In this document: positions 298 through 62,721 of the stretch, piece by piece
How the letters are laid out: each line of letters starts with the position of its first letter
How positions within the stretch are numbered: position 1 is the first letter of the stretch
Origin: a virus
Lineage: Duplodnaviria > Caudoviricetes
Strand: one strand, 5' to 3'
Length of the DNA stretch: 64,000 nucleotides
Virus record (IMG/VR): IMGVR_UViG_3300031867_000038
Location: 9,954 to 73,953 of that record
The notes under the pieces: generated by a model
What the model was told of the DNA's origin: nothing
Seen by the model: the letters and a program-made list of their open reading frames with translations, nothing else
The model's database searches: none
Made by a program: the position numbers and the translations under genes

Positions 298-618
298 ATG
301 ATTATTAGTAATTTAGTACAAGGAGCTATAGGTCAAATTAAAGGGCCTTTAACAAATAAAGAGTCAATTACTTTTAGCACTGGCAATGAAGCAGGGGCAG
401 GGCGGCCGCCTGATTTAAAACTAGGTATTTCTATTGATGAAAAAGATCTTATGACTTATGGATGGAGATTTGAAGTTACAATTAATAAAAATATTAGAAT
501 TTTAATAGGATCAACTGGTCGATATGAATTTGATGAAAAGATTGCAGTTGATACAATCTCTTTTCCAGAAGGGGCGCCTGCCAGTGTTATCATTGATTAT
601 GTTGTATTGGATATATAA
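298..618 (+). CDS. hypothetical protein (tail region)
   Basis: 106-aa ORF, RBS-like AGAAAGGGTG upstream. Confidence 0.6.
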   Translation: MIISNLVQGAIGQIKGPLTNKESITFSTGNEAGAGRPPDLKLGISIDEKDLMTYGWRFEVTINKNIRILIGSTGRYEFDEKIAVDTISFPEGAPASVIIDYVVLDI

Positions 619-633
619 GGAGTGTAAAATGCT

Positions 634-1011
634 ATGGCGGATCGGATAAAAGGATTACGACAAAAAAATAACCAAGGTGTTTTTGATGCTTTGGTTCCTT
701 TTGGCACTGATGGCATTTTCGTAGATATGGTAAGTGGGCTAGACAATGAAGAAGAGTTAAAAATTGGTGGGAATCATACTTCTACTATTGTAGAAAATTT
801 AGATGGTTCTACAACTATTACAGAATTATTTAAAAATTTAAATAATGTAGTAACTTATACTATTGTTACAAATATTATTACTGCTCAAAATGGTTCGACA
901 ACAATTACAAGTGTTTTAAAAGAACGAGATACTGAAACTGTTCTACGAAGTAAGACTATTACTATCCCTGCTGATGCAAGCAGTATAACAATTGGGGAGG
1001 TATTAGATTAA
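634..1011 (+). CDS. hypothetical protein (tail region)
   Basis: 125 aa, AAGGAG RBS, stop overlaps next start. Confidence 0.65.
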   Translation: MADRIKGLRQKNNQGVFDALVPFGTDGIFVDMVSGLDNEEELKIGGNHTSTIVENLDGSTTITELFKNLNNVVTYTIVTNIITAQNGSTTITSVLKERDTETVLRSKTITIPADASSITIGEVLD

Positions 1012-1460
1012 TGAGTGCATGGCCAGAAGCTATATATATAATTCAAAAATTAAATAATTCTATTGAGAATATTTATAATATAGATGAAGATATTCAAGTT
1101 ATTGATGATACTAATACTAGAATTGATGATTTAAATATCAAGGTTTTAACTGGTGGAGAAACTAGTGATGGCACTATTGTTGATATGAGTGTAAATTCTA
1201 AATATACTCAATTAATGAATACTTTAAATGTTATTGAAAGTGAAGATAGTACCACACCAGGAAGCTTAGCAAATTTGCAAGAACAATTAGACGAATTAAA
1301 TACATCTGCTGTAGAAGAAGCAAATAATAAGATTAATGAGTTTAATAAAAATTTAGCAAGCGCAAAAAAAGAAATAATTATTGTTTCAGCGACAGAGCCT
1401 CCAACAGATACAGATCAAAAATTTAATAAATATTCAGTGTGGATGAAGACAGAGGGGTAA
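1011..1460 (+). CDS. hypothetical coiled-coil tail-accessory protein
   Basis: 149 aa, heptad-like, C-terminal SVWMK motif. Confidence 0.55.
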   Translation: MSAWPEAIYIIQKLNNSIENIYNIDEDIQVIDDTNTRIDDLNIKVLTGGETSDGTIVDMSVNSKYTQLMNTLNVIESEDSTTPGSLANLQEQLDELNTSAVEEANNKINEFNKNLASAKKEIIIVSATEPPTDTDQKFNKYSVWMKTEG

Positions 1461-1464
1461 TATT

Positions 1465-1854
1465 ATGAGTAGAATCAATGAATATACTCCTTTAAAATTA
1501 GAATTATTAGATAATTTAGAATCAGAATCACAACTTTTCGATTCTTCAATTGAAGACATTGACCAACGATTAGATAATGCTAATGATGCAATTGATCAAT
1601 TAGATGAAGATATTCATGAATTAAAAGTTAAATTAGATAATATTTCACAAACAGTAAATGATGTTGATTATCAATCTCAAGTGGCGGCAGATACTTTACA
1701 AGTAAAACTAAGAAAAAGTATAGTTGCAGCTACGGATGCTACTGATAACACCCAGCCAGATTTAAATACAGATGATTATCAAGATTTATTAAATCCAGAA
1801 TATGAATATTATGGATTTTCTGAAGGATCAGCATGGTTTATTTTAGAGAGTTAA
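1465..1854 (+). CDS. hypothetical acidic coiled-coil protein
   Basis: 129 aa, C-terminal GSAWFILES motif. Confidence 0.55.
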   Translation: MSRINEYTPLKLELLDNLESESQLFDSSIEDIDQRLDNANDAIDQLDEDIHELKVKLDNISQTVNDVDYQSQVAADTLQVKLRKSIVAATDATDNTQPDLNTDDYQDLLNPEYEYYGFSEGSAWFILES

Positions 1855-1867
1855 AAGGAGATATAAT

Positions 1868-3181
1868 ATGTCAAAAATAAAAAGTGTTTCTACTTATGAC
1901 GGTTCTAGTTGGGGAACGGCAGTTCCTTTAGGAGCTGATGATGTTAATGTAGATATAACAAGTGCAACTACTAGTCCTACAGTTTCTTCAAGTACCGCGG
2001 CAGAGTTAACAACCGCAACAGATGTTATTGTTGCTTCAGGAGATACTAATGCTACTGCTTGGACAAAATTTAATAGATTTAGAAACAGAGTTACAAAAAC
2101 TTTTGGAAATTATATTGGAGGGTCTGTTCAACCCAGTTATAATGCAACAGGGAGTAATAGTACATTTTATCCCACTTCTGTTATTAATAATTACATGAAA
2201 AATGTAATTGGTCTAACTGGCACTAGTACGCCTACAATTAATGGTAGCGCACAAACCGTGGCGTCAGCTCTTAGTTCATTAAATGATAATATTATTCGAC
2301 CAAATCTGCTGGATAACTGGTATTTTGTTGGCGGTGGCTCACAGAGCGGAAATGGCGTATTCCCAATTAACCAGAGAGGACAGACAAGTTATAGCACGAA
2401 GGGGTACGGAATTGACAGGTGGTACAGGAGTACAGTAGCGGCAGGAAATATTTTGGTTAATGCCAATGGATTAACTGCAAGCACAAATCTGTTCATCCGT
2501 CAGGCAAACGACATACAGCCACAGTTGATCGGTAAAACGCTTACCTTCTCAGTTTTGTGGAAAAATGCTGGCTTGAGCTCTATTACACATGTTTTTGAAG
2601 ATGGTTATCGTTTTACAGCAAGTAGCGTAGATTACACAAAGCTTGTATATTCTTACGGGTTGACAGTGCTACCGCATGAACTTGTTGGATTGTTTGTAAC
2701 ACCAAGTGATTATATCATAGCAATCAAATTGGAAGTTGGAGATACATCGACCCTCGCACATAAGGAAGGTGACATATGGGTGCTGAATGAGCTTCCGGAC
2801 TATCAGACCGAATTGCAAAAATGCCTCGGCTATTATTACAAAACGAGTAACACTACCGCCATATTTGGCTCAGGGATTATCACAGGCTCTGCAAAGCGCG
2901 TGATCATGAATTTTACTGTACCTGTCCCGTTTGTGAGATCCATTTCAAGCGTGAGTATGCAGGATTACACTTTGAGATTAGGCACTTCAGGCTACAGCGC
3001 TTTAACTCCCAACGAAACATATATACAACCGGAGAGCTTGTCGGTGCTGTTACCCTCAAAATACAGTACATCAGTCAGAGTAACGGATTTGCATAAAGAC
3101 GCAACAGGCGATCCGAACAATAGCGCAATTATCGTTGCCGCCAGAGGCCTAGAAATATCCTGTGAACCAGTTGAGACTTAA
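1868..3181 (+). CDS. tail fibre / receptor-binding protein
   Basis: S/T-rich N-terminus, then NLLDNWYF...PINQRGQTSY...GYGIDRW motif typical of Firmicute phage fibre C-terminal modules; GC-richer 3' half. Confidence 0.65.
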   Translation: MSKIKSVSTYDGSSWGTAVPLGADDVNVDITSATTSPTVSSSTAAELTTATDVIVASGDTNATAWTKFNRFRNRVTKTFGNYIGGSVQPSYNATGSNSTFYPTSVINNYMKNVIGLTGTSTPTINGSAQTVASALSSLNDNIIRPNLLDNWYFVGGGSQSGNGVFPINQRGQTSYSTKGYGIDRWYRSTVAAGNILVNANGLTASTNLFIRQANDIQPQLIGKTLTFSVLWKNAGLSSITHVFEDGYRFTASSVDYTKLVYSYGLTVLPHELVGLFVTPSDYIIAIKLEVGDTSTLAHKEGDIWVLNELPDYQTELQKCLGYYYKTSNTTAIFGSGIITGSAKRVIMNFTVPVPFVRSISSVSMQDYTLRLGTSGYSALTPNETYIQPESLSVLLPSKYSTSVRVTDLHKDATGDPNNSAIIVAARGLEISCEPVET

Positions 3182-3217
3182 TTAATTAATGATAATAAAT
3201 TAGGTTAATAAATTTAA

Positions 3218-3246
3218 TTGCTTTTTTATAAAAAATATGATATGAT
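3218..3246 (+). promoter_or_regulatory. sigmaA-type promoter upstream of integrase remnant
   Basis: TTGCTT-N17-TATGAT; first 25 nt identical to the minus-strand promoter at 46041-46069. Confidence 0.55.
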
Positions 3247-3361
3247 TTTATTTGTATTTTTTATAAAGGTGATATTTGCGTGAGTGGTAAAAAAGATTAG
3301 TATATCCAAGTGCTAAATACAGCCTTACACTTGAAAAACTAAAAAAAAAATAATGCTCTAG

Positions 3362-3472
3362 TTTAAGCAAATACAAGATTATCTTGGTCATGAAAATATA
3401 AATATAACTAAAATTTATGCAAAATCTGATCGAGACACTATAATAAATTCATTTAAAAAATGTATGATTTAA
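3362..3472 (+). pseudogene. C-terminal remnant of tyrosine recombinase/integrase
   Basis: Translates FKQIQDYLGHENINITKIYAKSDRDTIINSFKKCMI*, matching the LGH...T..Y catalytic box; in-frame TAG immediately upstream and no N-terminal domain. Confidence 0.7.
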
Positions 3473-3484
3473 AAGGAGATTAAT

Positions 3485-3937
3485 ATGAATATTCGTTTTG
3501 GATCTAATGAATATGCATTAGTGCCAGGTTCTGGAATTAATACTCTTGGGAATGGTATTGATATTCAGTTATTAGCGCAAGATGTAAATTTAAATAGTCT
3601 TACTGACGTATTAAAAAATTCTGCTAATACTGAAACTATTAAAGTTGTGGATGGAGATACCACCACTCAAGTTATTGAAGGTTATTCTAAATTAGATCAT
3701 ATGGAAATTAGATATGATCAAATATATTTTACAGAATATGAAGAAGTAATTATTGTTCCAGCTCATCATGATTCAGAGACTGGCGAAGAAGTTCCAGCTC
3801 AGACCGAAATGGTTCCTCAGGATTTAACTGCTGATATTGTTTATATTCATATGGTTAAGCCTGGTCTTGAAGGTCAAGTAAAAGAAAATACTGCTAATAT
3901 TGAGTTCCTCGCTATTATGAGCGATATTGAACTTTAA
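3485..3937 (+). CDS. tail-fibre-associated hypothetical protein
   Basis: 150 aa, AAAGGAG RBS, followed by XkdX-like ORF. Confidence 0.6.
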   Translation: MNIRFGSNEYALVPGSGINTLGNGIDIQLLAQDVNLNSLTDVLKNSANTETIKVVDGDTTTQVIEGYSKLDHMEIRYDQIYFTEYEEVIIVPAHHDSETGEEVPAQTEMVPQDLTADIVYIHMVKPGLEGQVKENTANIEFLAIMSDIEL

Positions 3938-3954
3938 TTAGGAGGTAAATATAA

Positions 3955-4095
3955 ATGCATAGTCAAAATTTTATGAAGATTAAAGGCTATTATGACGCAG
4001 GTCTTTGGTCTATTGAAAAAGTGCGTGCGGTTGTTGGCAAGCGCCTTGGAATCACAGCGGAAGAATTTTTTGAGATCACTGGGCAGAGATATTAA
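3955..4095 (+). CDS. XkdX-family small protein (46 aa, not in ORF track)
   Basis: MHSQNFMKIKGYYDAGLWSIEKVRAVVGKRLGITAEEFFEITGQRY; YY..GLW...V......ITAEEF.EITG motif; AGGAGG RBS. Confidence 0.8.
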   Translation: MHSQNFMKIKGYYDAGLWSIEKVRAVVGKRLGITAEEFFEITGQRY

Positions 4096-4182
4096 ATTAA
4101 TTGCAAGTGATTTTTACAATCTTATGGAGAGAAGAATAAAAGACAATTTTTAATTGAATAATAGCTAGTAATAGCTTAGTAT

Positions 4183-4255
4183 ATAACCCCTTCTTTCCAT
4201 AAGGAGGGGTTATTTTTTTATGCCTTCTCTCATTTGAGAGAAGGCATTTTTTTTT
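4183..4255 (+). terminator. two tandem intrinsic terminators
   Basis: ATAACCCCT...AGGGGTTAT plus T-run; ATGCCTTCTCTCA-TT-TGAGAGAAGGCAT plus T-run. Confidence 0.85.
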
Positions 4256-4280
4256 GTTATGTTTAAAGGAGAAGATAAAA

Positions 4281-4587
4281 ATGTATAATCCTAATCCATA
4301 TATAAGGTAGTATTAAATCTAGTTTAGAACGATGGGTTGATTGGGAAACTGAAACTAAAACACTCTATGAAAAAATGTATAAAGAATTAATTAATCTTGG
4401 AGAAATTGCAGCAGCTAGTAAAATTCAAGAACTTGTTGAAGATGTTTCTGATGAATTAAAAACTGCACAGCAATATTATCTTAATAAAAAAGCTTCTGAT
4501 TATGATATGTCTGTTATTGTAGAAGAACAATCAAAACATAAAGAAATGTTTGAAGTAAAAACTAGAAGTTCTTTTATGTACAGATAA
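4281..4587 (+). pseudogene. truncated/frameshifted helical phage protein
   Basis: RBS+ATG at 4281 stops after 9 codons; a different frame is open 4306-4587 (SIKSSLERWVDWETETKTLYEKMYKEL...) with no upstream start. Confidence 0.45.
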
Positions 4588-4630
4588 AAAAATAAGGTAC
4601 TCTAATATGTTTAGAGTACCTTATTTTTTT
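4588..4630. terminator. bidirectional terminator between convergent units
   Basis: AAAAATAAGGTACTCTA-N7-TAGAGTACCTTATTTTT. Confidence 0.85.
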
Positions 4631-5132
4631 ATTCCCAATTAAATTCATCTTTATCAAATTCATTAATATAAGCCTGGCCTATTAAAACGGCATCAGCTAA
4701 ATCATCATTTTTAGTATTTAGATTAAATAATTCATTAGCTTTAGCTATATCGAGCGGTTTTAGCTGCGCCCGCGCAACTCCACGTCCTGTTTTAATTCCC
4801 ACTTGTTTGCGCCAATGACTAGAACTGCATAACTTCATTTCTTTTGAATAATGATTTAATACAATAGCTATAGCTCCGTGAGCAAAAGTTAACTTACGGT
4901 AAACATCAATGTTATTTTTAACAAAAGCAGGTTCTGGCTCTTCTGCATAAATTATATCTGGTTGATATTCTAACATAAGTAAATTAACTTCATCTGCAAT
5001 TTTTTCAATCCGAGTAATTACATTTTTACTTGTTGGAGCAATTACTCCATATGCTATTAATTTTTTATTTTGGAAAATTGCATAACCTGTTGAAGTAGTT
5101 GAAATATCTAATGCGAGAATTGTTTGACTCAT
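4629..5132 (-). CDS. ruvC: RuvC-like Holliday junction resolvase
   Basis: ILALDISTTSTGYA, YAEE, DDLADA acidic RNase H-fold motifs. Confidence 0.85.
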   Translation of the reverse strand: MSQTILALDISTTSTGYAIFQNKKLIAYGVIAPTSKNVITRIEKIADEVNLLMLEYQPDIIYAEEPEPAFVKNNIDVYRKLTFAHGAIAIVLNHYSKEMKLCSSSHWRKQVGIKTGRGVARAQLKPLDIAKANELFNLNTKNDDLADAVLIGQAYINEFDKDEFNWE

Positions 5133-5236
5133 ATAAATCCTTCTTTTTTAAATATAATTAGTTATTCTCTATTCTAATTATAAGTTATCATATTTTTTTA
5201 TTATTGTCAAGTTTATATAAAAAAAATGACTGCATA

Positions 5237-5458
5237 TTAAGTGCAGTCATTTGTTAAAGTTATATTAGAAATTGTTCCACCACAATAAACAGCTTTATCA
5301 AAAGAATATTGTGTTGTTGGTTTTAAGCAAGTGCTACGAGTTATTGAACACATTCCACAAGGAAGTCTATGACAACAATAGTTTGAATAAATATTCGCAG
5401 TAGTTGTATTAGAAGGGTATGTATTCGTGGTAGTATTAGTTTGTTCCACTTGAACCAA
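5237..5458 (-). CDS. hypothetical Cys-rich protein
   Basis: 73 aa, overlaps dut 3' end. Confidence 0.4.
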   Translation of the reverse strand: MVQVEQTNTTTNTYPSNTTTANIYSNYCCHRLPCGMCSITRSTCLKPTTQYSFDKAVYCGGTISNITLTNDCT

Positions 5459-5870
5459 ACCCCCCTTCGCCCCTTTCAGTGTCAGAAAGGTTATCTACTT
5501 CAAGCCATTCTACTTCAGGAACAGGGGCAAAAATCATTTGTGCAATTCTATCTCCAGCATTAATATAATGGGGTTCTGTTCCATGATTATGAAGAGCTAC
5601 AATGATTTCTCCACGATAATCAGCATCAATAACACCGACTTTATTTGCGGGAGCCAGCCCTTTCTTAATACCAAGGCCAGATCTTGCATAAATCATGCCA
5701 CACCAGCCATGTGGGATTGCCATTTCTAGGCCTGTATGGAAAGGCACTGTTTCACCAGGTTCAATAATTCCGCCATGGGTTGTATAAAGATCCCAGCCGG
5801 CCGCGTCAACACTACCTCTAGTTGGAATTTTCACACCGGCTGCCGCACATTTAACTTCAATATTAAGCAT
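5436..5870 (-). CDS. dut: trimeric dUTPase
   Basis: AAGWDL, RSGLG, GVIDADYRGEI, RIAQM, RGEGGFGSSG. Confidence 0.97.
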   Translation of the reverse strand: MLNIEVKCAAAGVKIPTRGSVDAAGWDLYTTHGGIIEPGETVPFHTGLEMAIPHGWCGMIYARSGLGIKKGLAPANKVGVIDADYRGEIIVALHNHGTEPHYINAGDRIAQMIFAPVPEVEWLEVDNLSDTERGEGGFGSSGTN

Positions 5871-6099
5871 AAGTAACCTCGATTTCTTCTACAGGTTCTT
5901 TTGGATCATTAAAAGATTTAACAAGAACTACTTGATACCAAGAATCAACAATTTCGCCCTTAGCTTTTCTTTCTTTAAGTTCACTAGAGTATTTCTTTAA
6001 AGCATATCTATTTTCTTTCTTTTGTTCTTCAATAAATGCTTTAGCTTCATTTTCACTATCAATTCTATATTTTTCAGTTACTTCGCAAAGATATTTCAT
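5863..6099 (-). CDS. hypothetical protein
   Basis: 78 aa, translationally coupled. Confidence 0.6.
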   Translation of the reverse strand: MKYLCEVTEKYRIDSENEAKAFIEEQKKENRYALKKYSSELKERKAKGEIVDSWYQVVLVKSFNDPKEPVEEIEVTYA

Positions 6100-6380
6100 T
6101 TAATAACTCCTTTTAACTCAACTTCTATTGGGGACACTACACTATAATTATTAAATTGAATTTTTAATTCTTGTTCTAAACGCTCTTTAGTCTTTTGAGT
6201 ATATTTTTGATTACCATAAATAACTACATGATCAATATTTTGTTCTAAAATAAAGTTAGCAATTTTACTGCTATCAGTAGAAAGAGGACCTGTATATTCA
6301 GTGCACCCTGTTGTAGAATTATAAACTAAAGCAGGATAATTAAAGCTTAATGGTCTAACATCTAAAACTAATTCTTTCAT
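6096..6380 (-). CDS. hypothetical protein
   Basis: 94 aa in operon. Confidence 0.55.
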   Translation of the reverse strand: MKELVLDVRPLSFNYPALVYNSTTGCTEYTGPLSTDSSKIANFILEQNIDHVVIYGNQKYTQKTKERLEQELKIQFNNYSVVSPIEVELKGVIK

Positions 6381-6383
6381 TTT

Positions 6384-6761
6384 TTAAACCTCAATAACCG
6401 CAGCATCATAACAAAATAAATAGTAACAATAATCTTCTTGACTTTCACTGGTAGGATCTCCGCAACGGAGCCAAATTTCCCACGCAGTATTTGCTTTATC
6501 TTTGTCAATTGAAACCACCTGACCTCTATTTTCTAAACACTCTAGCAGTATATTAGCAGCTTCCGCAGGAGATTCAATTACACGAAAAATAGTATAATCT
6601 CTTCGTTCATGGCAAAGTAGCATGGCATATGTATCAATACTATCTCTAAACCATAGACGAATTTCATCAATTCTTTTTTTAATTTGATTTTGACTTAATA
6701 TTTTCTCTTGACTGCTAAGCTGTTTATTTACTTCATATAAACTATTACCTTGAATTTCCAT
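6384..6761 (-). CDS. hypothetical protein
   Basis: 125 aa in operon. Confidence 0.6.
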   Translation of the reverse strand: MEIQGNSLYEVNKQLSSQEKILSQNQIKKRIDEIRLWFRDSIDTYAMLLCHERRDYTIFRVIESPAEAANILLECLENRGQVVSIDKDKANTAWEIWLRCGDPTSESQEDYCYYLFCYDAAVIEV

Positions 6762-7273
6762 TAGCTAATCCTTTCAGCATATTGATTAGGAGAAGCTAAA
6801 TTTACTCCTAATACTTTATCATAATGTGATTCACAATCAGGAATAAATCTCCCATATTTTATAATTATATTATCATAATTTTTAAGTTTTGTCAAGATAT
6901 CCATTTTAATAAAGACACCCATTGCAGGAGCTTTACTTAATTCTTCTTTTGTATATCCAGTATAAATTACAATATCATCATGGCAATCATACAAATGACG
7001 TAACATATAAATAAAATTTACTACAGTGAGCATACTATCAAATGGTTCTAATCCTTGCATAACAATAGCTTCAGTAATAGGATTAGCAAGATATCTTTCA
7101 ATTAATGTTACATCATTTATATCTATATTGGGGGCGGAGGCTAGGTCTGAATTTTGACAAACCTGGCGCCCGCACTCTTTATCACATTTAAAAGTACAAT
7201 ATGGAAATTCTAGAACCATTGAAGGTTTTTTATAATTTACAAAATCTTCATCAATTAGTCCTTTGAGTATCAT
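6761..7273 (-). CDS. nrdG: anaerobic RNR activase (radical SAM)
   Basis: CTFKCDKEC cluster motif, GLEPF, YTGY; adjacent to nrdD. Confidence 0.85.
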   Translation of the reverse strand: MILKGLIDEDFVNYKKPSMVLEFPYCTFKCDKECGRQVCQNSDLASAPNIDINDVTLIERYLANPITEAIVMQGLEPFDSMLTVVNFIYMLRHLYDCHDDIVIYTGYTKEELSKAPAMGVFIKMDILTKLKNYDNIIIKYGRFIPDCESHYDKVLGVNLASPNQYAERIS

Positions 7274-9222
7274 AATGCCTCACTTGTTTGATTGATAGCT
7301 TCCCATCTTCTAAGTTTATATTCGCTCTTTCTATTTTTAGACCAGGTCTGAATTGGAGTATAAAATCCAACTATTCTTGTATATTCAGTTTCAACTGGTT
7401 TTCCACATACAGGGCAAGTTCTTCCATAAAATGCATGATTATCTTCACAAGCTTGAATCTTGGTATTAAAAGCAAAGTAGGTTACACCTTGATCAGCAAT
7501 ATATTCAACCATTTTTCTAGCTTTTTCATAACTATCAAAAGGAGAATCAATGTTAGCGTGAAGAATTGAGCCACCATTGCAATAGCCATCAAATAATGCT
7601 TGAACTCTTACTCTTTCTTGCAGAGTTGTTTTAATTCCAAGTGGCATAAACTGATTACCATATAGCGGCAGGTCATAAATATCAGCATCAGGATAAAAGA
7701 ATTTATCTTTACGCATTAGTTTGTCTGCAGCACTTTCACCTGGAATTTGTTCTGTATTAATTTTATAATCTGCGCCCATATCAATAATGAATTGATCTGC
7801 AACTTCCCGCATAGTTTTAAAAATCTTTTCTCCTAGTGCGGCTGCACGATCATCATAAAAAGTATTACCAAATTGATCTTGATTAATATAGCCAAAACGT
7901 TTCATAGTTTCATATACGCCAATAAAACCAATCGTATTATATAAATGTTCAAAATCAACTAATCCATATGAGAAATTAGGAAGTAATCCTTTTTCAACAT
8001 TCCGTTGAATGATATGTCTAACGCAATCTAGAGCTCTGAGTGCGACAAGGGTGCGCCCGCGCAGATTCTCGATAAACTCTTCTTCATCTTTTGAATCAAG
8101 TGCGCAACGAGCTAGATTAATAGTATTAACTTTAACAGAACCAACTTTAAGAGCTGTTCCACCTATTGAATTGAAATAACCTAAATCTCTAATGTCACTC
8201 TTTAATCTACAACAATTTGATAGACTATTGACTGAGTCATCAATAAAAAGGTTACTATCGCTCCATTGTATATTATGTTCTATAGCCCAATGAGCAAATC
8301 CTTCATCTTCAAATTTGCCATTTTTTCTAAGTAATGAAATTGTAGAAACTGGGAATGTGAACATATTATCATTACGAGTTGCAGCCATCTCTTCTAAGTA
8401 CCACTTTTGAAATTCAATGACTTCATCTTCTGCATCAATCATAAAACTACCATCAGGAAATTCGCTGCCGCCAAATAATGCTTCATAATAAGGATGGTCA
8501 AATACAGAAGTATTAGTAAATGCTGATTGTTGCCCATCACGTACATAGGGCTGGTTTACTGCGTATATAAATCTCTGGAAATTCTGTCGAGCATATTTTT
8601 CTTCACTATGACTCATTCTAATTCCGAGATAATCTGATTCAACATCTTTGTGCCAGAAATAATACATATATGGAATTAGATTTGGCAGACCAACTGCGCC
8701 AGAAGATCTATTACTAGCAAAGCCAATGAACTCTTTAACAAAATCTACAAAAGTAGTAAGATGCTGTGCGGGCTGTGGGTTAAAAGTACCGCCAATGAAA
8801 TACAACCCTTTTTCTGCTAAATCTTTAAGATCATATGCAAAGCAATAATGTTTAAAAGTAGAAGTATCTGAGTCATGCATATAAAGCTGCCCAATCCATT
8901 CCATTCTCAGCCATTCATTCGCAGCTTTAAATCCAAACCTCTTTTGCATCTCATAATAAATTTTATTAAATGCAAGCACTTTTCTATGGGGTTTTGGCAT
9001 TTCAGATAAAAGTGTTACTATATCTTTTCTGCCTACATTACTATTTCCATCAATAGAAGAATCTGCTACTGTAGATTCATCAATAAAATTTGAAATAAAA
9101 TCTGTATAAGAGAGTTGTTCATCTGCAAAACCATTAATTTGCGCGAGTTCAGTTCCAAACTCTCCTTGTAATTTATTATATTGAGTAGTAAAATTTTTAC
9201 CTAATCGAACATTTATTTCCAA
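7270..9222 (-). CDS. nrdD: class III anaerobic ribonucleotide reductase (no ATP cone seen)
   Basis: YMHD, HYCFA, NCCRL, C-terminal CPVCG and TRIVGFY glycyl-radical loop. Confidence 0.95.
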   Translation of the reverse strand: MEINVRLGKNFTTQYNKLQGEFGTELAQINGFADEQLSYTDFISNFIDESTVADSSIDGNSNVGRKDIVTLLSEMPKPHRKVLAFNKIYYEMQKRFGFKAANEWLRMEWIGQLYMHDSDTSTFKHYCFAYDLKDLAEKGLYFIGGTFNPQPAQHLTTFVDFVKEFIGFASNRSSGAVGLPNLIPYMYYFWHKDVESDYLGIRMSHSEEKYARQNFQRFIYAVNQPYVRDGQQSAFTNTSVFDHPYYEALFGGSEFPDGSFMIDAEDEVIEFQKWYLEEMAATRNDNMFTFPVSTISLLRKNGKFEDEGFAHWAIEHNIQWSDSNLFIDDSVNSLSNCCRLKSDIRDLGYFNSIGGTALKVGSVKVNTINLARCALDSKDEEEFIENLRGRTLVALRALDCVRHIIQRNVEKGLLPNFSYGLVDFEHLYNTIGFIGVYETMKRFGYINQDQFGNTFYDDRAAALGEKIFKTMREVADQFIIDMGADYKINTEQIPGESAADKLMRKDKFFYPDADIYDLPLYGNQFMPLGIKTTLQERVRVQALFDGYCNGGSILHANIDSPFDSYEKARKMVEYIADQGVTYFAFNTKIQACEDNHAFYGRTCPVCGKPVETEYTRIVGFYTPIQTWSKNRKSEYKLRRWEAINQTSEAL

Positions 9223-9512: not shown

Positions 9513-10151
9513 TTAATAGTGTAAAGAAATAGTAACATTATCAGTAGAATGAATAGATTTATGTTGAATGATTTCTATAAGAATAGTTTCATATAACAAA
9601 GGAAGAATATCATTTTGTACAATTGCAGAGATTTCATTATGTTCATTTTCAATTATAAAATGATGAAAATTAATATTCTTACGTGTAAAATCTTCTTTAT
9701 CAGTTTTAAATCTGCGACAAATTTCTTCGCAGTCAGGTTCTACTTCACGGTTAAGCTGTCTCAATAATCTTGTTTTATCTGAGCATGTTATATAAATAGG
9801 AATAATTGTGTATTCATCCCAAGGTAAATTTAAAAGTTGTTTTACGCCTGCAATATTAAATACTCCTATATTAATTTTATCAGATCGAATTGAATTTTTT
9901 AGAGTACCATAGCGCCAGCCTCTAAATTCTGCATACTCCAGATAATCTCCATTATCTAGATATTTTTGAGATTCTTCATCTGAAATAAAATGATAATCAA
10001 CCCAGTTTTGTTCATACTCACGCGGCGGCCGCGTAGTTGAAGAAATAATTTCATGGCAAAGATAAGGAGATTGTTTTACAATCTCCTTTTGAATTGTATC
10101 TTTACCAGCTCCCGCCGCCCCAAATAATGCTACAATATATTTTTTATTCAT
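9513..10151 (-). CDS. gmk: guanylate kinase
   Basis: GAAGAGKDT, TTRPPREYEQNWVDYHF, YGT; likely start ATG 10151. Confidence 0.9.
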   Translation of the reverse strand: MNKKYIVALFGAAGAGKDTIQKEIVKQSPYLCHEIISSTTRPPREYEQNWVDYHFISDEESQKYLDNGDYLEYAEFRGWRYGTLKNSIRSDKINIGVFNIAGVKQLLNLPWDEYTIIPIYITCSDKTRLLRQLNREVEPDCEEICRRFKTDKEDFTRKNINFHHFIIENEHNEISAIVQNDILPLLYETILIEIIQHKSIHSTDNVTISLHY

Positions 10152-13100
10152 CAGTTTGTCCATACCTTTTTGATGTAATCTCAATATTTTGCCCATGAAC
10201 ATCTGTTATTTTATATAATGTATGTCCAGGTGTATTATTATAACGTTTTGCTACGAACATATCATCTCTTCTAAACCCTGTTACCATAAGTTTTGTGCCT
10301 CGTACAAACCAGCCTTTTTCTTTAACCTTTTTAGTTCCATCAGGCTGTGGTTCACTAATCTGTCTACCATACAATGCATAGAACTCTTTTGTAAATTTGA
10401 CATTAACAACTCCTGTTTGAGTTAATAATGAAATACTATGACGACTATCATTTTTACTAATTACAGTGCCTGCAATTCTAAACAGATTAAAGATTGGAAT
10501 TTGTTTATTATTTCGTTTAAAGAAATAATTAACACTTGGTTCAGAAGATAATGTATTAAAATCAATAATACCATATTTTTGTTCATTTACATGCGTAAGC
10601 TCATGTTCATGATAATAAAAACATAATGCTTCCATTTCCCATGCAGAGATTGTACCTTGCGCATATTTATTCCAACATTCCATAAACAATTGCTGGTTAT
10701 ATGCATCTAACATTTCTTGCTGATGCTTTTGAAGATAAGTTCGTACTTTATCAATCTTTTGTTTATAAACTTTATCCCAAACAGTTTGCTTAATAAAATA
10801 CTGACCATGACTAATTTGTACGATATCTAAAAGATCAGGCACTTCACGTTCTAGAAATTCATACATAATTTCATCAATTCTATAATACTCTTCAACCTTA
10901 TCTTTTTTACAGAATTTATTAAATTTAAAAATTTTCTTTTCAAAATCTAATTCTGCTGGGAAAAGATTACGTTCAATTAATCCATTAACATTTTGAAGGT
11001 TAAGTTTTGATTTTGGTTCACTTGCAATCAAAAGATATTGAATCATTGTAAAATATCTTGGTTCACATTTAAGTTCTGCGGCAGCCGCCTTATTCAGCGT
11101 GTCAAACGCCCCCGCTTTAATCAAACTAATCATCGCTGTTTTTGTTAATGGACATTTACGCATAAAATCTTTAAATGAATAATATGGTCTATTTGCAATA
11201 ATTTTTTCTATAATTGGCGCTCCAACTCCTGTTAAAGCTTTCATACCAAAAAGAATTTGATTATTTTCTTCATCAGGTTCAAAACCATATGAAGATTTAT
11301 TTATATCAACGAGTGAAACTTTAATACCTGATGCAATAATTTCACCCAATGCTTTTGCTAATTTACTATAATCTGTACTAGCTTCTTTCTTTTGAACTCC
11401 AATGATATCTCCATCATCATCTTCAAGATATTCATTATCATCATTCTCCAGACTTCCGCTATTTACAATCAGACATGCTGTATTCCAATAAATTGGATTC
11501 CAATTTGTTGCTATATATGCAGTTTGATATCCAATAAATGAATATGCTAGAGCGTGGATGACTGAAAAACTATAACCCATTTGTGGACCAATTCCAGACT
11601 TCCATACATATTGACCTAACGCTGGAGATTTTGCTTGAGTTAAAACTTTTTCTCTTAAAGCTGGAATTTTATCCATTTGTTTCTTACCAACTACTTTTCG
11701 CGCGGCATTTGCTTCGGCCAGCGTAAACCCACAAATATTTTCATCCATTAACATTTGCATCAATTGTTCCTGGCTTGGCGGCACTCCATATGATGATTTA
11801 AAGTACGGCTCAAGAACCTGGACTTCCCGATCGGTTAAACCTGCGCCCGCCATTTCATTATACCAAAGTTTAATATTATTCTTAAACCTGATATACTTTT
11901 CCATTGGAGTTTCTTCGCCTTGTTCACTTGTCATCAAACGCATTAGTCCATTTGCGTCCGTAAGCTCTAGAATATTCTGCGGCTTAATCTTCTTTGCGGC
12001 TTGCGCCCCCACATCTGAATCAAACTGAAATACATTAAGAATTTTACCAGTTTGAATATTTTTCCATACATCATCTCGATCAAGAGGAATAACATTAGGA
12101 TGAAGGTATTTATTATAAACTTCTCTTAAACTTAAATCAGATTCAATCTTATTATTCTCTTGAAGGAATTTAATTGCTTGTGCTAATTTATCTTGAACTT
12201 CTGTTACTAGAAAGTCATATTTTACATAACCTAAATATTCTGCATCATGCAGATCATATGCTGTGATAATTTCACCTTTCGGCGTTCTCATATAAGATCC
12301 AAATTCATACGGATCTTGATCATTCATAATAATTCCAGAAGCATGAGAGCTACGTTTATTAATAAGATTTTCGATACCCTGCATAATTTCCAAAAGACCT
12401 GGATAATTTGAAATCTCATTAATAAATAAATCAACCTTGCGGCGGCCCTTTTCAGAATTACCCTGGACTACATCTTTTAATGGCCATAGAAATCCTCTTT
12501 CTTGTGGAACTAGAGATGATAAATACTGTGCTGTATCACTATCAATTCCATCTGGGTACTCTTCAGATCTATAACCACGGCAAGCTGTAAGAATTGTTGA
12601 TTTAGTTGTTTCTGTTCCGAATGTTGCTACCAAAACACAACCAAGATTATTACGACTTAATTCATCAATTTCTGGATTAAAATCTTTGCCACGCTCTTCT
12701 TTAATTTTACGGATAATTGTAGATTTCTTTGATGGACAAAGATCTATATCAATATCGCCAAGCTCTACCCTATCGCGATTTAAATATCTCCAGAATGGAA
12801 GACTCCATTGAATTGGATCAAGTTGTGTAATCCCAAGTAGATAATGATTGAGTCCACTACAACTAGACCCACGGCCGGCACCGACCAAACTCCCGCAATC
12901 CCACATCATATCAATATAATGTTGAAGAGTTATAGGATATTTAAACATATTAGTTTCAAGTTTTTCACTAATTGTTTTCTTAATATCTGCTTCTTCTTCA
13001 AGACGGGAAAGATATGTGTTGTTATCTTTATTTAAATTTTTTAATTTAATTAAACATTCATTAACCCAATATCTTTCATATTTATCATCAGAAATTTTCA

Positions 13101-45702: not shown

Positions 45703-46012
45703 TAATTTCCCTCCATCCATTATGTTGAATAATAGCTCTCATATTCTGAATACCAACAGGGTTCATAGAATGAATATGAAAGAAATAACCTGTATCAACA
45801 ATACCCTGACGCTCAAGCCACTTTAAAATTTCAATATAATCGCCGCCATCTTTAGTATAATTACCAGCATCATGATCGAGATCAATCATAATCGTATCAT
45901 CATGCATATTACTTTCATAAGTACGAATTGCTGATTTAGCTCCATTAACAGTCCGACACCAAAGCCAACTCGTATCGGGCGGCCGCCGCATATCATCAAT
46001 CCACAGTTTCAT
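45695..46012 (-). CDS. cyclic-phosphate-processing receiver-domain protein
   Basis: KLWIDDMR.P, IDLDHDAG, HSMNPVG. Confidence 0.75.
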   Translation of the reverse strand: MKLWIDDMRRPPDTSWLWCRTVNGAKSAIRTYESNMHDDTIMIDLDHDAGNYTKDGGDYIEILKWLERQGIVDTGYFFHIHSMNPVGIQNMRAIIQHNGWREING

Positions 46013-46102: not shown

Positions 46103-47356
46103 TTACTTATCTAATAGAGTAATTCCATCAATATCTAGATCAAAGTATGGTGCTGATCTAAATTCAGATTCATGAAAATATCCATCAAAAATTACATTAG
46201 TATCAGGGGTGAAATTAGGATCAGAATCTACATCTGCCATATATTCAGTTAGATGCTCTCCATTGACTGTAAAATTATTAACATCAAAAACATGGATAGT
46301 ATTTGATTCAAGATATTTTCTTGCTTCAATAAGAGCTTCCGCAGTCCCTTCCGCAGCAACCTTATCATTAATCTCTGTCATTGTAACAGATCCAAGAGTC
46401 ATATTACCTGTCCAGTCTACATCAATAGGAGTTCCTGTCTGAACAGAGCTAATAATATATTTGAAATAAGGCGCCCAATCAATGCGAGTAGACACTATAA
46501 AAGTATTAGGTGCGGCTGAAATTGTACTACCGTTATAAGATACATTAGGGATACCTGCGGCTTCACATGCGGATGGCGCCCCCATAGAGTCTGCGTGCTG
46601 GCTAATAAGTTTACAGCCATTTTCAATTAGACGATTCGCGCCTTCTTTTTCCAGAGCTTCATCATACCAAGAATTAGTAAATACAACATCCATAGTTACG
46701 TCAGGACAAATATATCTAGCACCAAGGAAGAAGGCAGTATAACCAGATTTCACTTCAGCATAAGGATAAGCTCCAATATAACCTATCTTAGCTTCTTCTG
46801 GAGTAAACTCTCCATTAGCCATCATTTCATTTAACTTCATACCAGCGGCGACTCCCGCCATAAACCTACCTTCATAGATAGAAGCAAAAGCATTATGGAA
46901 ATTTGGAAGTCCGAGAGTATGAGCCTGTGTGCCAGTAGCATGACAGAACTGTACATCTGGGGCGGCCTGCGCAGCCTGGATAAGATAATCTTCATGTCCA
47001 AAGGAATCAGCAAAGACAATATTGCATCCTTCATCTACAAGATCCATAGCTGCTTCATAGCACTCGCCGCCTTCAGGAATACCAACTTTATTAAGATAAG
47101 GGACTCCCATTTCTTCGCAAGCTTCTTTTGCAGCCTTCATAAAGTTAAGATCATATGTAGACTGTTCATCATGGAGATAAATAAAACCTACTTTAACAGG
47201 AACAAGGCCATCTGGAATAATCTCTGCTTCTGCGGGCGCAGGTTCATTTGATACTTCGGGGCTAGGCTCTGCAGGTACCGCAGGTGTCTGAGTGCAAGCG
47301 CAAAGAGTAAACATCATCATACAAATAAGAATAACTGAAAGAATACGCTTTTTCAT
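46103..47356 (-). CDS. BMP-family (nucleoside-binding type) ABC substrate-binding lipoprotein
   Basis: Lipobox LCAC, VFADSFGH, EGRFMAG, IGYIG, QHADS; own promoter 47420-47448. Confidence 0.88.
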   Translation of the reverse strand: MKKRILSVILICMMMFTLCACTQTPAVPAEPSPEVSNEPAPAEAEIIPDGLVPVKVGFIYLHDEQSTYDLNFMKAAKEACEEMGVPYLNKVGIPEGGECYEAAMDLVDEGCNIVFADSFGHEDYLIQAAQAAPDVQFCHATGTQAHTLGLPNFHNAFASIYEGRFMAGVAAGMKLNEMMANGEFTPEEAKIGYIGAYPYAEVKSGYTAFFLGARYICPDVTMDVVFTNSWYDEALEKEGANRLIENGCKLISQHADSMGAPSACEAAGIPNVSYNGSTISAAPNTFIVSTRIDWAPYFKYIISSVQTGTPIDVDWTGNMTLGSVTMTEINDKVAAEGTAEALIEARKYLESNTIHVFDVNNFTVNGEHLTEYMADVDSDPNFTPDTNVIFDGYFHESEFRSAPYFDLDIDGITLLDK

Positions 47357-47454
47357 AAAAACTCCTTTGATTTTCAAAGTATTATACTATTTATATATGA
47401 GAAATACCCATATATAAATAGTATATCAAAAAATTTTTAAAAGTGCAAATTTAA

Positions 47455-49779: not shown

Positions 49780-50037
49780 TTACATCCAAACTTTCTGAAT
49801 ATTATACATTTCTTTATTCCATCTTAATACTCTATCCCAAGTTTGCTGTGCATAAATATGACAATCTAAAGTAGGATTTATAACATCAATCCAATGCGCG
49901 TCAGCTGCTTCCTGCATTTCAGATCTAAAATCTTCCATAAAAATATCTAGGAGTTGTTCTTCGAGCGGCCGCCGCGTTTTTGCGACAGCTACTACTTCAC
50001 CATTTTCAACATCGACAAGGCAATAAATTTTTTTCAT
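49780..50037 (-). CDS. hypothetical protein
   Basis: 85 aa, coupled. Confidence 0.55.
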   Translation of the reverse strand: MKKIYCLVDVENGEVVAVAKTRRPLEEQLLDIFMEDFRSEMQEAADAHWIDVINPTLDCHIYAQQTWDRVLRWNKEMYNIQKVWM

Positions 50038-59497: not shown

Positions 59498-59501
59498 GTA
59501 A

Positions 59502-59608: not shown

Positions 59609-59621
59609 TTAAATTAATTAT

Positions 59622-60152: not shown

Positions 60153-60171
60153 AGGCATTTCTCCTAAATAA

Positions 60172-60281
60172 AAATTGTGTGCGGCGACCGCCCTACGCTC
60201 CACACATGAGGACACTTTACTTTCAGTCCTAACCATACTACTTTTGATCCCGAGGCATAGCCATCCCCGCTCATGCATGTT
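60172..60281 (-). ncRNA. GC-rich structured RNA in tRNA-Ser 3' trailer
   Basis: CAUGCAUGAG/CUCAUGUGUG 10-bp stem enclosing hairpins. Confidence 0.4.
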
Positions 60282-60282
60282 G

Positions 60283-60374
60283 TGGCGCCTGTGGTGCGTG
60301 CCGACCACACTCAAGCTTTACAGCTCCTAACTCCTTAGCAGAGAGTCCCCTTTGCCAACATTGGGTACACAGGC
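60283..60374 (-). tRNA. tRNA-Ser(GCU), non-canonical T-loop
   Basis: GCCUGUG/CACAGGC, G73-CCA, loop CUGCUAA, variable arm GUAA tetraloop, T-loop GUCGGCA. Confidence 0.82.
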
Positions 60375-60446
60375 ATATAAATGTCATTGATTATCGGTTC
60401 AATAACAAAAACCTTTATATGTCCTAAACTATAAGTAAAGGATTAC

Positions 60447-60533
60447 TGGTGCGGGTGGCCGGACTTGAACCGGCACGGGCTAAAGCCCAACAGATTTTAA
60501 GTCTGTGGTGTCTACCTATTCCACCACACCCGC
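60447..60533 (-). tRNA. tRNA-Leu(UAA)
   Basis: Canonical cloverleaf, CUUAAAA loop, GGUUCAAGUCC, ACCA. Confidence 0.95.
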
Positions 60534-60541
60534 ATATTAGC

Positions 60542-60603
60542 AAAACACTTTTTATTGACCGTTTTGCAGACGATTGATTTTTTAAATTGCTGTTTGTGTC
60601 TTT
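60542..60603 (-). ncRNA. stem-CAGCAA RNA A, carrying a Cys(GCA) anticodon stem-loop
   Basis: AAGACAC/GUGUUUU stem; AAACAGCAA; AUCGU-CUGCAAA-ACGGU; promoter 60621-60649 directly upstream. Confidence 0.6.
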
Positions 60604-60645
60604 CTTTATCTTACAAATATATTATATCAAAAATTTTTTAAATTT

Positions 60646-60927
60646 TCAAATGTCAGTATTTTCTCTATATTCATATTCTTCTTCGGAGCAATAGTTCCAT
60701 CCACAATGAGTCATGGCATTATCATAATACAATTTTTCATCTTCTTCTGATTCCCACTGTGAATCCCAGCCGCGTTCCATATATTCATATGTTTCAGCAT
60801 TTTCATAAGCATATTCATTAGACATATCATTAATTTCATTTTCAGATACATCATCTTCAAATGCTACATACTCTTCATAGTCAGTGCCGCAGTACCCATT
60901 ATTACCAAAAAATATTACATACTTCAT
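60646..60927 (-). CDS. acidic hypothetical protein
   Basis: AAAGGAG RBS before ATG 60927. Confidence 0.6.
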   Translation of the reverse strand: MKYVIFFGNNGYCGTDYEEYVAFEDDVSENEINDMSNEYAYENAETYEYMERGWDSQWESEEDEKLYYDNAMTHCGWNYCSEEEYEYRENTDI

Positions 60928-60949
60928 TAAAGAGTTCTCCTTTAAAAAC

Positions 60950-61116
60950 AAGACAGCAAGTTCTGTTTTATTACCTAACGAATGGCGGTGGCTTACAAAC
61001 TAGAACCACAATAAACTCAGCGTTTTCACATAGGTTTTAAATCAAGCGTCTTATAATAAGACATCTATTTTCATTGTAATAAATAATTACATTGATTTTG
61101 CTGTAATACTGTCTTT
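60950..61116 (-). ncRNA. stem-CAGCAA RNA B
   Basis: AGACAGUA/UGCUGUCU stem, UUACAGCAA, internal hairpins; starts just after the tRNA-Ile CCA. Confidence 0.55.
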
Positions 61117-61117
61117 A

Positions 61118-61194
61118 TGGTACTCTAGGTTGGACTCGAACCAACGATCATCGGATTATAAGTCCGACGCTCAAACCAACTGAGCTGCTAGAGT
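61118..61194 (-). tRNA. tRNA-Ile(UAU)
   Basis: ACUCUAG/CUAGAGU, UCGGA-CUUAUAA-UCCGA, GGUUCGAGUCC, ACCA. Confidence 0.92.
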
Positions 61195-61201
61195 ATATAA
61201 A

Positions 61202-61952
61202 TGGCGGGCGTGCAATTGCTAGTCGGTCTCAACCCAGTACTAGTTCAATCACGCGCATCTTATCGGGGTTGCACAGATGTTATTGTACGTCTACTCGCGC
61301 TTCATAGCGTAGACGTTCGGGAGTTCTCTCTCCTCGTGTCCCTTTCCTAAGCATTATTTTCTTCACGGCTTTTTATACTTGCCTACCGCCATATAGAACT
61401 CTTCTCATTTCAACTTGAACCTGTGAGAACTTTTAGAGATTAGCCAGGGACAACTCCCCTACTGTTAAACAAACCACCTATTCTTTATGGACACTTAATA
61501 GAGTGTTATTGTTTCTATTAAACCACTTTCGCTTGTTTATACTGTACATTTTTATCCAGTTTACTCGATCAAGCCATATTTCCCCCTTGGGTGGATTTAT
61601 TTTTGGCTCATCCCATAAGTCTTTATCATGACTTCAACCTATGGCGACTGACGAAGGGACAGGCTACCACTGCCCGAGCTGGATTTTTACTTTGTAACTT
61701 GCTTATTCCGCCACAGCGCGGTCAAGCGAAACCGCTTTGCAAAGTTGGAGGTTTTACCATCGCTATCGCAGATTAAACCTACCTTAAACGATGCGAGCAT
61801 AGCGCTCATCTTTAGTTTACCTTTTGAAACTCTGAGGTATATGCCTTACCATCTGTAAAGTCACCCAGCTAGATTTTAACAAGTTACCCCTGAGATCTGC
61901 TTGTGTCGTCGAGAGCCTTTTGAGTAGCTAATTCATATCTCTCTCGATCTTA
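61202..61952 (-). ncRNA. ~750-nt large structured RNA, GOLLD-like candidate
   Basis: Own promoter (61960-61988), no credible same-strand ORF, many stems, adjacent to a tRNA, ends ...CCGCCA. Confidence 0.65.
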
Positions 61953-61991
61953 CATATATATTATAGCAAAAATTTTTCTTTTTTGCAAGTG

Positions 61992-62375
61992 TTAATTAGG
62001 AACTCTACCTTCTAGTCTTGGAAATCTACCTTCTAGTCTTGCTTGTTGATTTGGATTAGGATTTTCATTCCAAACCTTCCAACGCGTAGTAATACATTCA
62101 TTCACCCAACGAATTACTCGATAATCAAAAGAATAGTTATTAAATACTTCGGTTTCTACCTTACCAGTTTTATTATCTTTCAGTTGAAGAACAACCAAAA
62201 ATTCTGCGCCACTTTTATCTTCATAAGGATGAAAATATGCTGCCCGTTGAGTTAAAATGAAACGACCATGCCAAAGCCAATCAAATTTGATACTCTGATT
62301 GTAGTCCCGAACAATTTTATTTACATCTCTTTGATACTTTTTTCGGTATAAAACTGAACGTCTGTTTTTTAGCAT
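61992..62375 (-). CDS. hypothetical protein
   Basis: AGAGGAG RBS, 127 aa. Confidence 0.6.
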   Translation of the reverse strand: MLKNRRSVLYRKKYQRDVNKIVRDYNQSIKFDWLWHGRFILTQRAAYFHPYEDKSGAEFLVVLQLKDNKTGKVETEVFNNYSFDYRVIRWVNECITTRWKVWNENPNPNQQARLEGRFPRLEGRVPN

Positions 62376-62391
62376 ATTTCCTCCTATTAAT

Positions 62392-62721
62392 TTAACTCAA
62401 TTCTTTCAACAGCGCATCAACCTGCTGCGCAGCAGTATTATAAGCCAGGTATGCATCATGATAATACTGCTCAGCATGAGTCAGTTTATCTTCTACGGCG
62501 TTATATTCATCAAGAGCATCATTCATTTTCTGGCTGGCTCTTTCATATCTCTTCGCGGCGACCTTTTCATTACAACGCGCGGCCGCCAGAGCCTTACCTT
62601 TTTCTACATCAAACTTATCATGCTCAGAACAAATAGCGACCCCGCGCACAGTCTTTCCAGCGTAGGTAGACAAAGCAATAATCTTACGCCCAACAATTAC
62701 ATAACGATAATTTGTAAACAT
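62392..62721 (-). CDS. hypothetical protein
   Basis: AGGAGG RBS; promoter 62750-62778. Confidence 0.7.
   Translation of the reverse strand: MFTNYRYVIVGRKIIALSTYAGKTVRGVAICSEHDKFDVEKGKALAAARCNEKVAAKRYERASQKMNDALDEYNAVEDKLTHAEQYYHDAYLAYNTAAQQVDALLKELS

Follow-up and report, generated by a model that had tools for sequence, protein, structure and literature searches.

Why should the DNA of a phage with 33.1% G+C carry, over and over and inside unrelated genes, the NotI palindrome GCGGCCGC? The stretch that raises this question, hereafter the window, comprises 64,000 nucleotides and corresponds to bases 9954–73953 of a 73,953-bp viral contig of the IMG/VR database (IMGVR_UViG_3300031867_000038, here G000). 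The contig is a fragment of an SPbeta-like phage of ~130 kb from rumen metagenomes; its completeness is estimated at 49%. An earlier note on the same sequence had proposed that the palindrome is an iterated element of its own, comparable to the highly iterated palindromes (HIPs) of cyanobacteria and built either by a methylase coupled to very-short-patch repair or by selection for a signal acting in cis. We think that the repeated feature is a different one, namely the uninterrupted G/C-only island of ~7–14 bp, and that the NotI palindrome is its by-product; we give this reading a probability of about one half.

The count itself stands up well. GCGGCCGC occurs at exactly the 13 positions that had been found by eye (Table 1), whereas dinucleotide-preserving shuffles give a mean of 0.07 copies and a maximum of 1. 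The 11-mer that had been singled out, taken together with its complement, is present in 7 copies for 0 expected, and the additional GCGGCGGCC/GGCCGCCGC cores were likewise confirmed. It had also been stated that the sites lie in unrelated genes and in several frames, and indeed 13/13 are in open reading frames (ORFs), each in a different one. Seven of them are read as Ala-Ala-Ala (GCG GCC GCN), five as Arg-Pro (CGG CCG) and one as Gly-Arg (GGC CGC). Three nulls that keep more of the coding constraint raise the expectation: synonymous shuffling within genes gives 0.81 sites (z = 13), the same shuffling with dinucleotides also kept gives 4.3 (z = 5.7), and 2.9 are expected (z = 6.0) if the 5-nt context is kept. 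The earlier note had named the loss of the excess under codon- or dipeptide-preserving nulls as the outcome that would speak against it; the excess persists in all three, and the over-representation at the DNA level, independent of reading frame and beyond codon usage, is upheld by them. A literature search for over-representation of NotI sites in phages gave nothing relevant.

The palindrome is nevertheless not where the signal sits. A maximal-order Markov analysis shows no excess at 7- or 8-mers, which tells against a NotI or HIP-like palindrome as the iterated element; the signal is found in 3–6-mers (CGC, CCGC, CGGC, GCCGC, CGGCCG), and all-G/C words are enriched generally. The 74-kb contig holds 107 G/C-only runs of at least 7 nt, and runs of at least 8 nt occur about once per kb. 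All-G/C octamer windows number 189 in the contig for 10.7 expected from composition, and 181 for 27 under synonymous shuffling. Almost all the all-G/C pentamers are enriched 1.8–2.8-fold over a synonymous-codon null, the exceptions being words that contain CCGG or are rich in homopolymers. Runs of at least 8 nt that lack GCSGC (S being G or C) are enriched 2.4–2.5-fold all the same, and the enrichment of GCSGC itself is only 1.06–1.19-fold once the pattern of G/C versus A/T positions is fixed, which gives no support to GCSGC as the unit in G000 either. Moreover, in G000 the excess of runs increases with their length, from ~2-fold at 8 nt to 15–40-fold at 12–14 nt.

The same bias can be followed at single wobble positions. 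When a wobble base is flanked by two G/C on each side (SS_SS), its G/C frequency is 0.34–0.68 for nearly every flank pair, against a baseline of 0.12–0.36; palindromic and non-palindromic pairs show the same effect, and the frequency is 0.07 where CCGG would form. The longer the flanking G/C runs, the more probable is G/C at the wobble, with a smooth climb from 0.19 to 0.7–0.9. Free positions flanked by G/C bases that the protein imposes are G or C far more often than others, at all codon positions and on both strands. Neighbouring wobble bases are correlated with a phi of 0.067 when no G/C intervenes, of 0.071 with one and of 0.163 with two. Since the correlation doubles only when two G/C stand between, it is nucleotide contiguity that matters and not codon rarity, and a clustering of rare codons was rejected on this ground. 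ACN codons placed before codons that start with G/C show no effect.

Neither orientation nor position distinguishes the islands. For comparison we used a complete relative, G001 (locus L028; 133,655 bp with terminal repeats), whose DnaE is 83% identical to that of G000. The non-palindromic word GCGGCGGC is found 12 times on the coding and 9 times on the template strand of G000, and 15 and 18 times, respectively, in G001; with such a balance a Chi-like polarity was discarded. The spacing of the islands is Poisson-like, with a coefficient of variation of ~1, and close pairs are if anything below expectation; therefore the islands are not hairpin arms, and regular spacing was dismissed as well. 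One-base variants of the NotI site are commonest at the inner positions 3 and 4 (GCCGCCGC, GCTGCCGC and GCGCCCGC), and GCCGCCGC alone has 21 occurrences on both strands, to be compared with 26 strand-occurrences for NotI.

If G/C-only islands are the unit, one has to explain why so many of them are spelled as NotI. Reshuffling G and C alone, with the protein and the G/C-versus-A/T pattern fixed, gives an expectation of 6.0 NotI sites for G000 (29 potential windows) and 8.9 for G001 (41 potential windows), while 13 and 19 are observed. When CCGG, CCGCGG, GGGCCC and 5-nt homopolymers are also barred, the expectations rise to 8.4 and 12.6. These palindromes are depleted under the pattern-fixed null: CCGG is found 20 times in G000 for 41.6 expected (66 for 125 in G001), CCGCGG 3 times for 10.5 (10 for 21.6 in G001), and GGGCCC is absent for 4.8 expected (0 for 9.3 in G001). 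GCCGCGGC is absent from G000 for 5.0 expected, with the same pattern in G001. The wobble pairs used in Ala-Ala-Ala are GC (19), GG (18) and CC (15), with CG at 0. All-G/C tracts of four alanines contain NotI in 11/11 cases, reading GCGGCGGCCGC or its complement, which are the sole all-G/C forms of such a tract without CCGCGG and without a perfect triplet repeat. Because the lineage bars CCGG, CCGCGG, GGGCCC, long homopolymers and perfect triplet repeats, the islands that encode Ala-Ala-Ala(-Ala), Arg-Pro or Gly-Arg are funnelled into GCGGCCGC and GCGGCGGCCGC.

Other lineages exclude other words. The complete relative G408 (130,270 bp) depletes GGCC (14 for 50 expected) as well as CCGG, builds its islands from CCCGC/CCGCC words and is down to a single NotI site, a further argument against the palindrome as the unit. 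In general, short palindromes are depleted with respect to protein- and composition-preserving nulls, and the depleted sets differ by lineage. Palindromes containing A/T are affected too: by a Markov model of the whole contig, GAATTC occurs 20 times for 58 expected, both strands counted, and GGATCC, ATCGAT, GTATAC and GAATGC are likewise depleted, which is consistent with broad restriction avoidance. The excluded words would reflect avoidance of a host repertoire of HpaII/SacII/ApaI type, together with avoidance of slippage. The island vocabulary might then serve as a sequence-only fingerprint of the restriction pressure on each lineage, CCGG, CCGCGG and GGGCCC here and GGCC in the relative. 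Restriction avoidance of GCWGC (W being A or T) as the sole cause of the islands was rejected, because non-palindromic flanks are equally affected and the gain of GCSGC is ~2 times the loss of GCWGC.

Table 1. G/C-only islands in the window, with and without the NotI palindrome (window positions; codons in the frame of the gene)
Position	Feature	Strand	ORF or gene	Reading	In relatives
402–409	GCGGCCGC within run GGGCGGCCGCC	+	ORF 298–618	GGG CGG CCG CCT (G R P P)	
10025–10032	GCGGCCGC, 13-nt G/C run	-	ORF 9513–10202	CGG CCG CCG (R P P)	kept in G001
17225–17232	GCGGCCGC	-	ORF 16890–17285	CGG CCG CAG (R P Q)	
22882–22895	14-nt G/C run with GCGGCCGC		YorH-like ORF 22794–23309	GCG GCG GCC GCC CCT (A A A A P)	
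27215–27222	GCGGCCGC		CAP-domain ORF 26938–27651	GCG GCC GCA (A A A)	GCAGCTGC in strain G002
30201–30212	12-nt G/C run with GCGGCCGC		GIY-YIG ORF 29704–30696	GCG GCC GCG (A A A)	kept in G001
34525–34535	11-mer with GCGGCCGC		gyrA 33339–35681	GCG GCG GCC GCA (A A A A)	kept in G001
39170–39181	12-nt G/C run with GCGGCCGC		gyrB N-terminal ORF 39016–40299	GCG GCG GCC GCA (A A A A)	kept in G001
41299–41311	13-nt G/C run with GCGGCCGC		endolysin ORF 40587–41774	GGC GGC CGC GCA (G G R A)	
42185–42196	12-nt G/C run with GCGGCCGC		ORF 42142–42585	GCG GCC GCC GCA (A A A A)	kept in G001
45976–45989	14-nt G/C run with GCGGCCGC		ORF 45695–46012	CGG CGG CCG CCC (R R P P)	
49965–49976	12-nt G/C run with GCGGCCGC		ORF 49780–50037	CGG CGG CCG CTC (R R P L)	
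62576–62587	12-nt G/C run with GCGGCCGC		ORF 62392–62721	GCG GCC GCG CGT (A A A R)	
4766	G/C-only run without NotI				
8053	G/C-only run without NotI				
11107	G/C-only run without NotI				
12439	G/C-only run without NotI; GCGGCGGCC/GGCCGCCGC core				
16039	G/C-only run without NotI; GCGGCGGCC/GGCCGCCGC core				
19564	G/C-only run without NotI; GCGGCGGCC/GGCCGCCGC core				
20438	G/C-only run without NotI				
21877	G/C-only run without NotI				
22620	G/C-only run without NotI; GCGGCGGCC/GGCCGCCGC core				
48213	G/C-only run without NotI; GCGGCGGCC/GGCCGCCGC core				
57384	G/C-only run without NotI; GCGGCGGCC/GGCCGCCGC core				
58771	G/C-only run without NotI; GCGGCGGCC/GGCCGCCGC core				

The island bias is a property of the phage family. 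Rumen and gut metagenomes are rich in relatives of G000, strain-level contigs being numerous, and every family member tested has a wobble G/C frequency of 0.23–0.43 in G/C context over a baseline of 0.15–0.2, the effect being weaker in the complete relative G407 (163,635 bp). For T4, Enterococcus phage H1 and phi3T, with 32–34% G+C, the wobble G/C frequency is flat or falling in G/C context and the runs match the null.

Comparison of strains gives a picture of islands in motion. Strains that have diverged by 11% of their nucleotides differ in 31 of 71 runs of at least 8 nt, nearly all through G/C-to-A/T changes, and ~5 of the 13 NotI sites are kept in G001, at ~75% nucleotide identity. With wobble sites near saturation between G000 and G001, the G/C-or-A/T state is correlated with a phi of 0.39 in G/C context and of 0–0.14 elsewhere. 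In DnaE, the island positions of the G000 clade show synonymous changes plus amino-acid changes toward Gly, Ala, Arg and Pro. Islands are gained and lost from strain to strain and seem to be at a steady state. The view of islands as decaying relics was given up, as the strain data look stationary, and singleton counts were dropped as a test of direction owing to saturation of the G/C sites.

The rates of change were estimated by fitting a two-state model to the four-fold sites of eight strain pairs. The total turnover between S and W in the SS_SS context is ~0.67 of the turnover elsewhere, and this ratio together with the compositions implies that W→S changes are ~1.9 times faster and S→W changes ~0.47 times as fast. 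A fixation bias with one parameter (S = 1.41) predicts 1.87, 0.455 and 0.65 for W→S, S→W and turnover, and the rates agree with a fixation weakly biased toward G/C. Transitions between S and W are up 1.47-fold in G/C context and transversions 1.45-fold, the latter from only 22 events.

Acting on duplex DNA, a weak bias would let G/C be fixed more readily than A/T where the neighbours are G/C, and could in this way maintain the islands with no need of a positioned signal or of a methylase/Vsr ratchet specific to the palindrome. Its source may be weak selection for G/C-only stretches or a GC-biased mismatch correction in heteroduplex DNA. Only tentatively, and with odds clearly below even, we suggest that G/C-only stretches of at least ~8 bp are selected as duplex clamps that are read by their stability, host restriction setting the words, or else that they result from GC-biased gene conversion cooperative with context. 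Clamps might fill the 8–9-bp RNA:DNA hybrid of the transcription complex or stabilise primers. They might also limit how far very AT-rich DNA, on which the phage's own gyrase acts, melts under supercoiling. If true, context-cooperative GC-biased gene conversion would be a form not described in viruses.

A possible, though doubtful, alternative places the context dependence in mutation instead of fixation, the islands being a neutral mutational equilibrium. The agents would be the phage replisome (DnaE-type, for which a separate proofreading subunit was not found), the deoxynucleoside triphosphate pools or local duplex stability; inside G/C-rich stretches there would be more A/T→G/C errors and less G/C→A/T damage, such as cytosine deamination. 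The bias is genome-wide, strand-symmetric, frame-independent, randomly spaced and turning over, as this explanation would have it, and its strength varies among lineages whose replication and nucleotide-metabolism genes differ. The turnover ratio is less favourable: protection from decay alone predicts ~0.35, extra W→S error alone ~1.4 and reduced proofreading a value above 1, while ~0.67 is observed, although a mixed spectrum is compatible with the data. A nucleotide-salvage module and the ribonucleotide reductase NrdD are restricted to the clade with the strongest island effect. Nevertheless, the clade-specific permease of that module is absent from the records of five relatives that show the effect, records which are only 19–61% complete, and the permease/deoxyribosyltransferase module was rejected as a factor. 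A conserved 330-aa GIY-YIG protein was rejected too, being present in strong and weak lineages alike.

The phage could also mirror its host, having been ameliorated to a chromosome with the same G/C-island bias, a case that we consider rather unlikely. It is common for phages to follow their hosts in oligonucleotide usage, and both the strength and the vocabulary of the islands vary among lineages from different metagenomes. However, mirroring does not explain the cause, and 0/401 sampled Clostridia genomes (Bacilli left out) come near the phage density of GCGGCGGCCGC; the highest value, 45 per Mb, comes from a genome with even more of the control word. Searches for the host did not identify it: all permease homologues fall within the same phage family, a scan of genome contigs gave only one weak match, to a metagenome-assembled genome of Clostridia, and a protein atlas search gave only viral clusters.

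More improbable is a HIP-like ratchet in which the host supplies a cytosine methylase that recognises G/C-only words (GCSGC, GGCC or NotI-type), paired with T:G mismatch repair; near-cognate sites would be converted and cognate ones protected, and phage DNA replicating in the host would accumulate the words. There is a precedent, since the alternate HIPs of cyanobacteria, including GCsGC of Cyanothece PCC 7822, are tied to cognate methylases, and methylation-dependent mismatch repair has been proposed for HIPs (Elhai 2015, PMC4390886). Depletion of GCWGC with enrichment of GCSGC would also suit it, as would W→S changes going up and S→W changes going down, which is what repair of the very-short-patch type would yield. 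The depletion of GCWGC argues at the same time against the methylation target GCNGC of phi3T type that had been considered in the earlier note.

The genes required by such a ratchet were searched with Pfam profiles, those for methylases being PF00145, PF01555 and PF02086. No methylase was found in the window, as had been stated before. There is no C5 methylase in G000, G001–G005, G407, G408 and G409, no Dam-type methylase in G000, G001, G407 and G408, and no N4/N6 methylase, Vsr (PF03852) or TGT in G000 or G001; the version of the ratchet encoded by the phage itself thus has no gene behind it in G000 or in the complete relatives searched. Furthermore, the small pattern-fixed excess of GCSGC and the equal effect on non-palindromic flanks show no word specificity, and one-base deviations have no outer-position bias. 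Transversions rise as much as transitions, a point that with 22 events is not decisive. As for a selected cis-signal of defined sequence read by a protein (a Chi-like, primase, packaging, gyrase or nucleoid-protein site), we regard it as highly improbable: the over-representation is extreme, some sites are kept in G001 and the phage carries its own gyrase, DnaB and RecJ, but non-palindromic forms have no strand or orientation bias, spacing is Poisson-like, excess rises steadily with run length without a preferred one, single sites differ between strains at 11% divergence and relatives use other words.

Several points weigh against reading the palindromes as a by-product of islands kept by a fixation bias and shaped by restriction. 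A leftover NotI excess of ~1.5-fold (13 for 8.4; 19 for 12.6) is not fully accounted for by the excluded words, and restriction as the cause of their depletion is suggested by the pattern of words alone. The rate argument amounts to one independent number, the turnover ratio, obtained from strain pairs that overlap, and heterogeneity among sites pulls this ratio downward, perhaps by 10–20%. A suitably parameterised context-dependent mutation spectrum fits equally well. A process that the phage shares with its host, including host methylase and mismatch repair, may be at work, and nothing that reads G/C-only islands or benefits from them was found. Finally, in non-coding DNA structured RNAs and terminator stems confound the evidence.

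Candidates for such stems lie in the small-gene region of G001 (1–9000), where there are long palindromic intergenic G/C runs, for example at 182, 771, 1356, 1789 and 4947. Several of them contain CCCGGG; they tolerate CCGG and look like terminator stems, a kind of run distinct from the islands inside genes. In the window, four tRNA genes (Ser-GCU, Leu-UAA, Ile-UAU and Trp-CCA) are found at 60283–63880, in DNA of higher G+C and sparse coding.

G000 encodes a DnaE-type polymerase, DnaB, a RecJ-like DHH protein and a RecD-like helicase, besides GyrA, GyrB and an NAD-dependent ligase. Its replication genes are arranged in synteny with those of SPbeta/phi3T and Enterococcus phage H1. Further genes encode NrdD, a xanthine/uracil permease, a PnrA-like lipoprotein, an RNA ligase, a TROVE-like protein and a CW_7/SH3 endolysin. 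An ORF of the nucleoside 2-deoxyribosyltransferase family (28861–29379) adjoins the permease (27648–28922), and the PnrA-like nucleoside-binding lipoprotein at 46103–47377 is the third member of what looks like a base/nucleoside salvage set. The set is present in the G000/G001 clade and missing from the complete relatives G407 and G408. NrdD (7270–9222) is 92.8% identical between G000 and G001, for an average ortholog of ~63%, which suggests recent exchange or unusually strong constraint. Near-identical strains differ in their intron and homing-endonuclease content over window positions 16890–40299 (loci L041–L047). For instance, gyrB is whole (638 aa) in L041 and interrupted by GIY-YIG ORFs elsewhere, the ligase is interrupted by a GIY-YIG ORF in L042, a LAGLIDADG ORF separates the YorF-like gene from the AAA_24 gene in a subset of strains, and RecJ, split in G000, is undivided in some strains.

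There is here a real, strong and lineage-specific compositional process, of which the NotI pattern is a by-product. Even a conspicuous number of palindromes in an AT-rich phage does not have to signal a methylase-linked HIP, and in this case the count decomposes quantitatively into a cooperative G/C-island bias and word avoidance. We think that a phage family with so many strain contigs is a natural system for studying weak, context-dependent, G/C-favouring fixation in phages. Whether due to selection or to biased conversion, such fixation bears on the open question of prokaryotic base composition.

With HIPs the islands share short G/C-rich words that are far over-represented, in all frames and in unrelated genes, and variable among lineages. 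However, a HIP is one particular palindrome, and the genome that carries it also encodes the cognate methylase, whereas the phage favours G/C-only runs of any kind, with little excess specific to the words GCSGC and NotI, and a phage methylase was not found. One-base deviations from HIPs favour the outer positions and those from NotI the inner ones. The phenomenon therefore fails the defining HIP features tested, frame-independence being shared. In E. coli, Dcm/Vsr very-short-patch repair enriches CCWGG. The island bias resembles it in being directional, one class of words going up and its A/T neighbours going down (GCSGC and GCWGC), and differs from it in that Vsr or a C5 methylase was not found and in that the effect goes beyond one word and is not clearly limited to transitions.

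Phage genomes are known to avoid restriction sites, and the lineage-specific loss of 4–6-bp palindromes (CCGG, CCGCGG and GGGCCC; GGCC in G408; GAATTC, GGATCC and ATCGAT) is of this kind. Unlike in plain restriction avoidance, this loss covers the vocabulary only, with a contribution of ~1.4-fold for NotI, and the existence of the islands is not explained by it. Like clusters of rare codons, the islands are made of the rarest codons of the genome (GCG, GCC, CGG, CCG and GGG), but their contiguity crosses codon borders in all frames and codon identity is irrelevant. In its rates the island bias resembles what GC-biased gene conversion does in bacteria, or weak selection acting on their G/C content: a weak preference for G/C, whatever the type of substitution, opposes AT-biased mutation, and the rate signature fits. 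To our knowledge, GC-biased conversion has not been described as cooperatively dependent on contiguous G/C context, and it is in this cooperativity that the bias of the phage islands differs from the known process.

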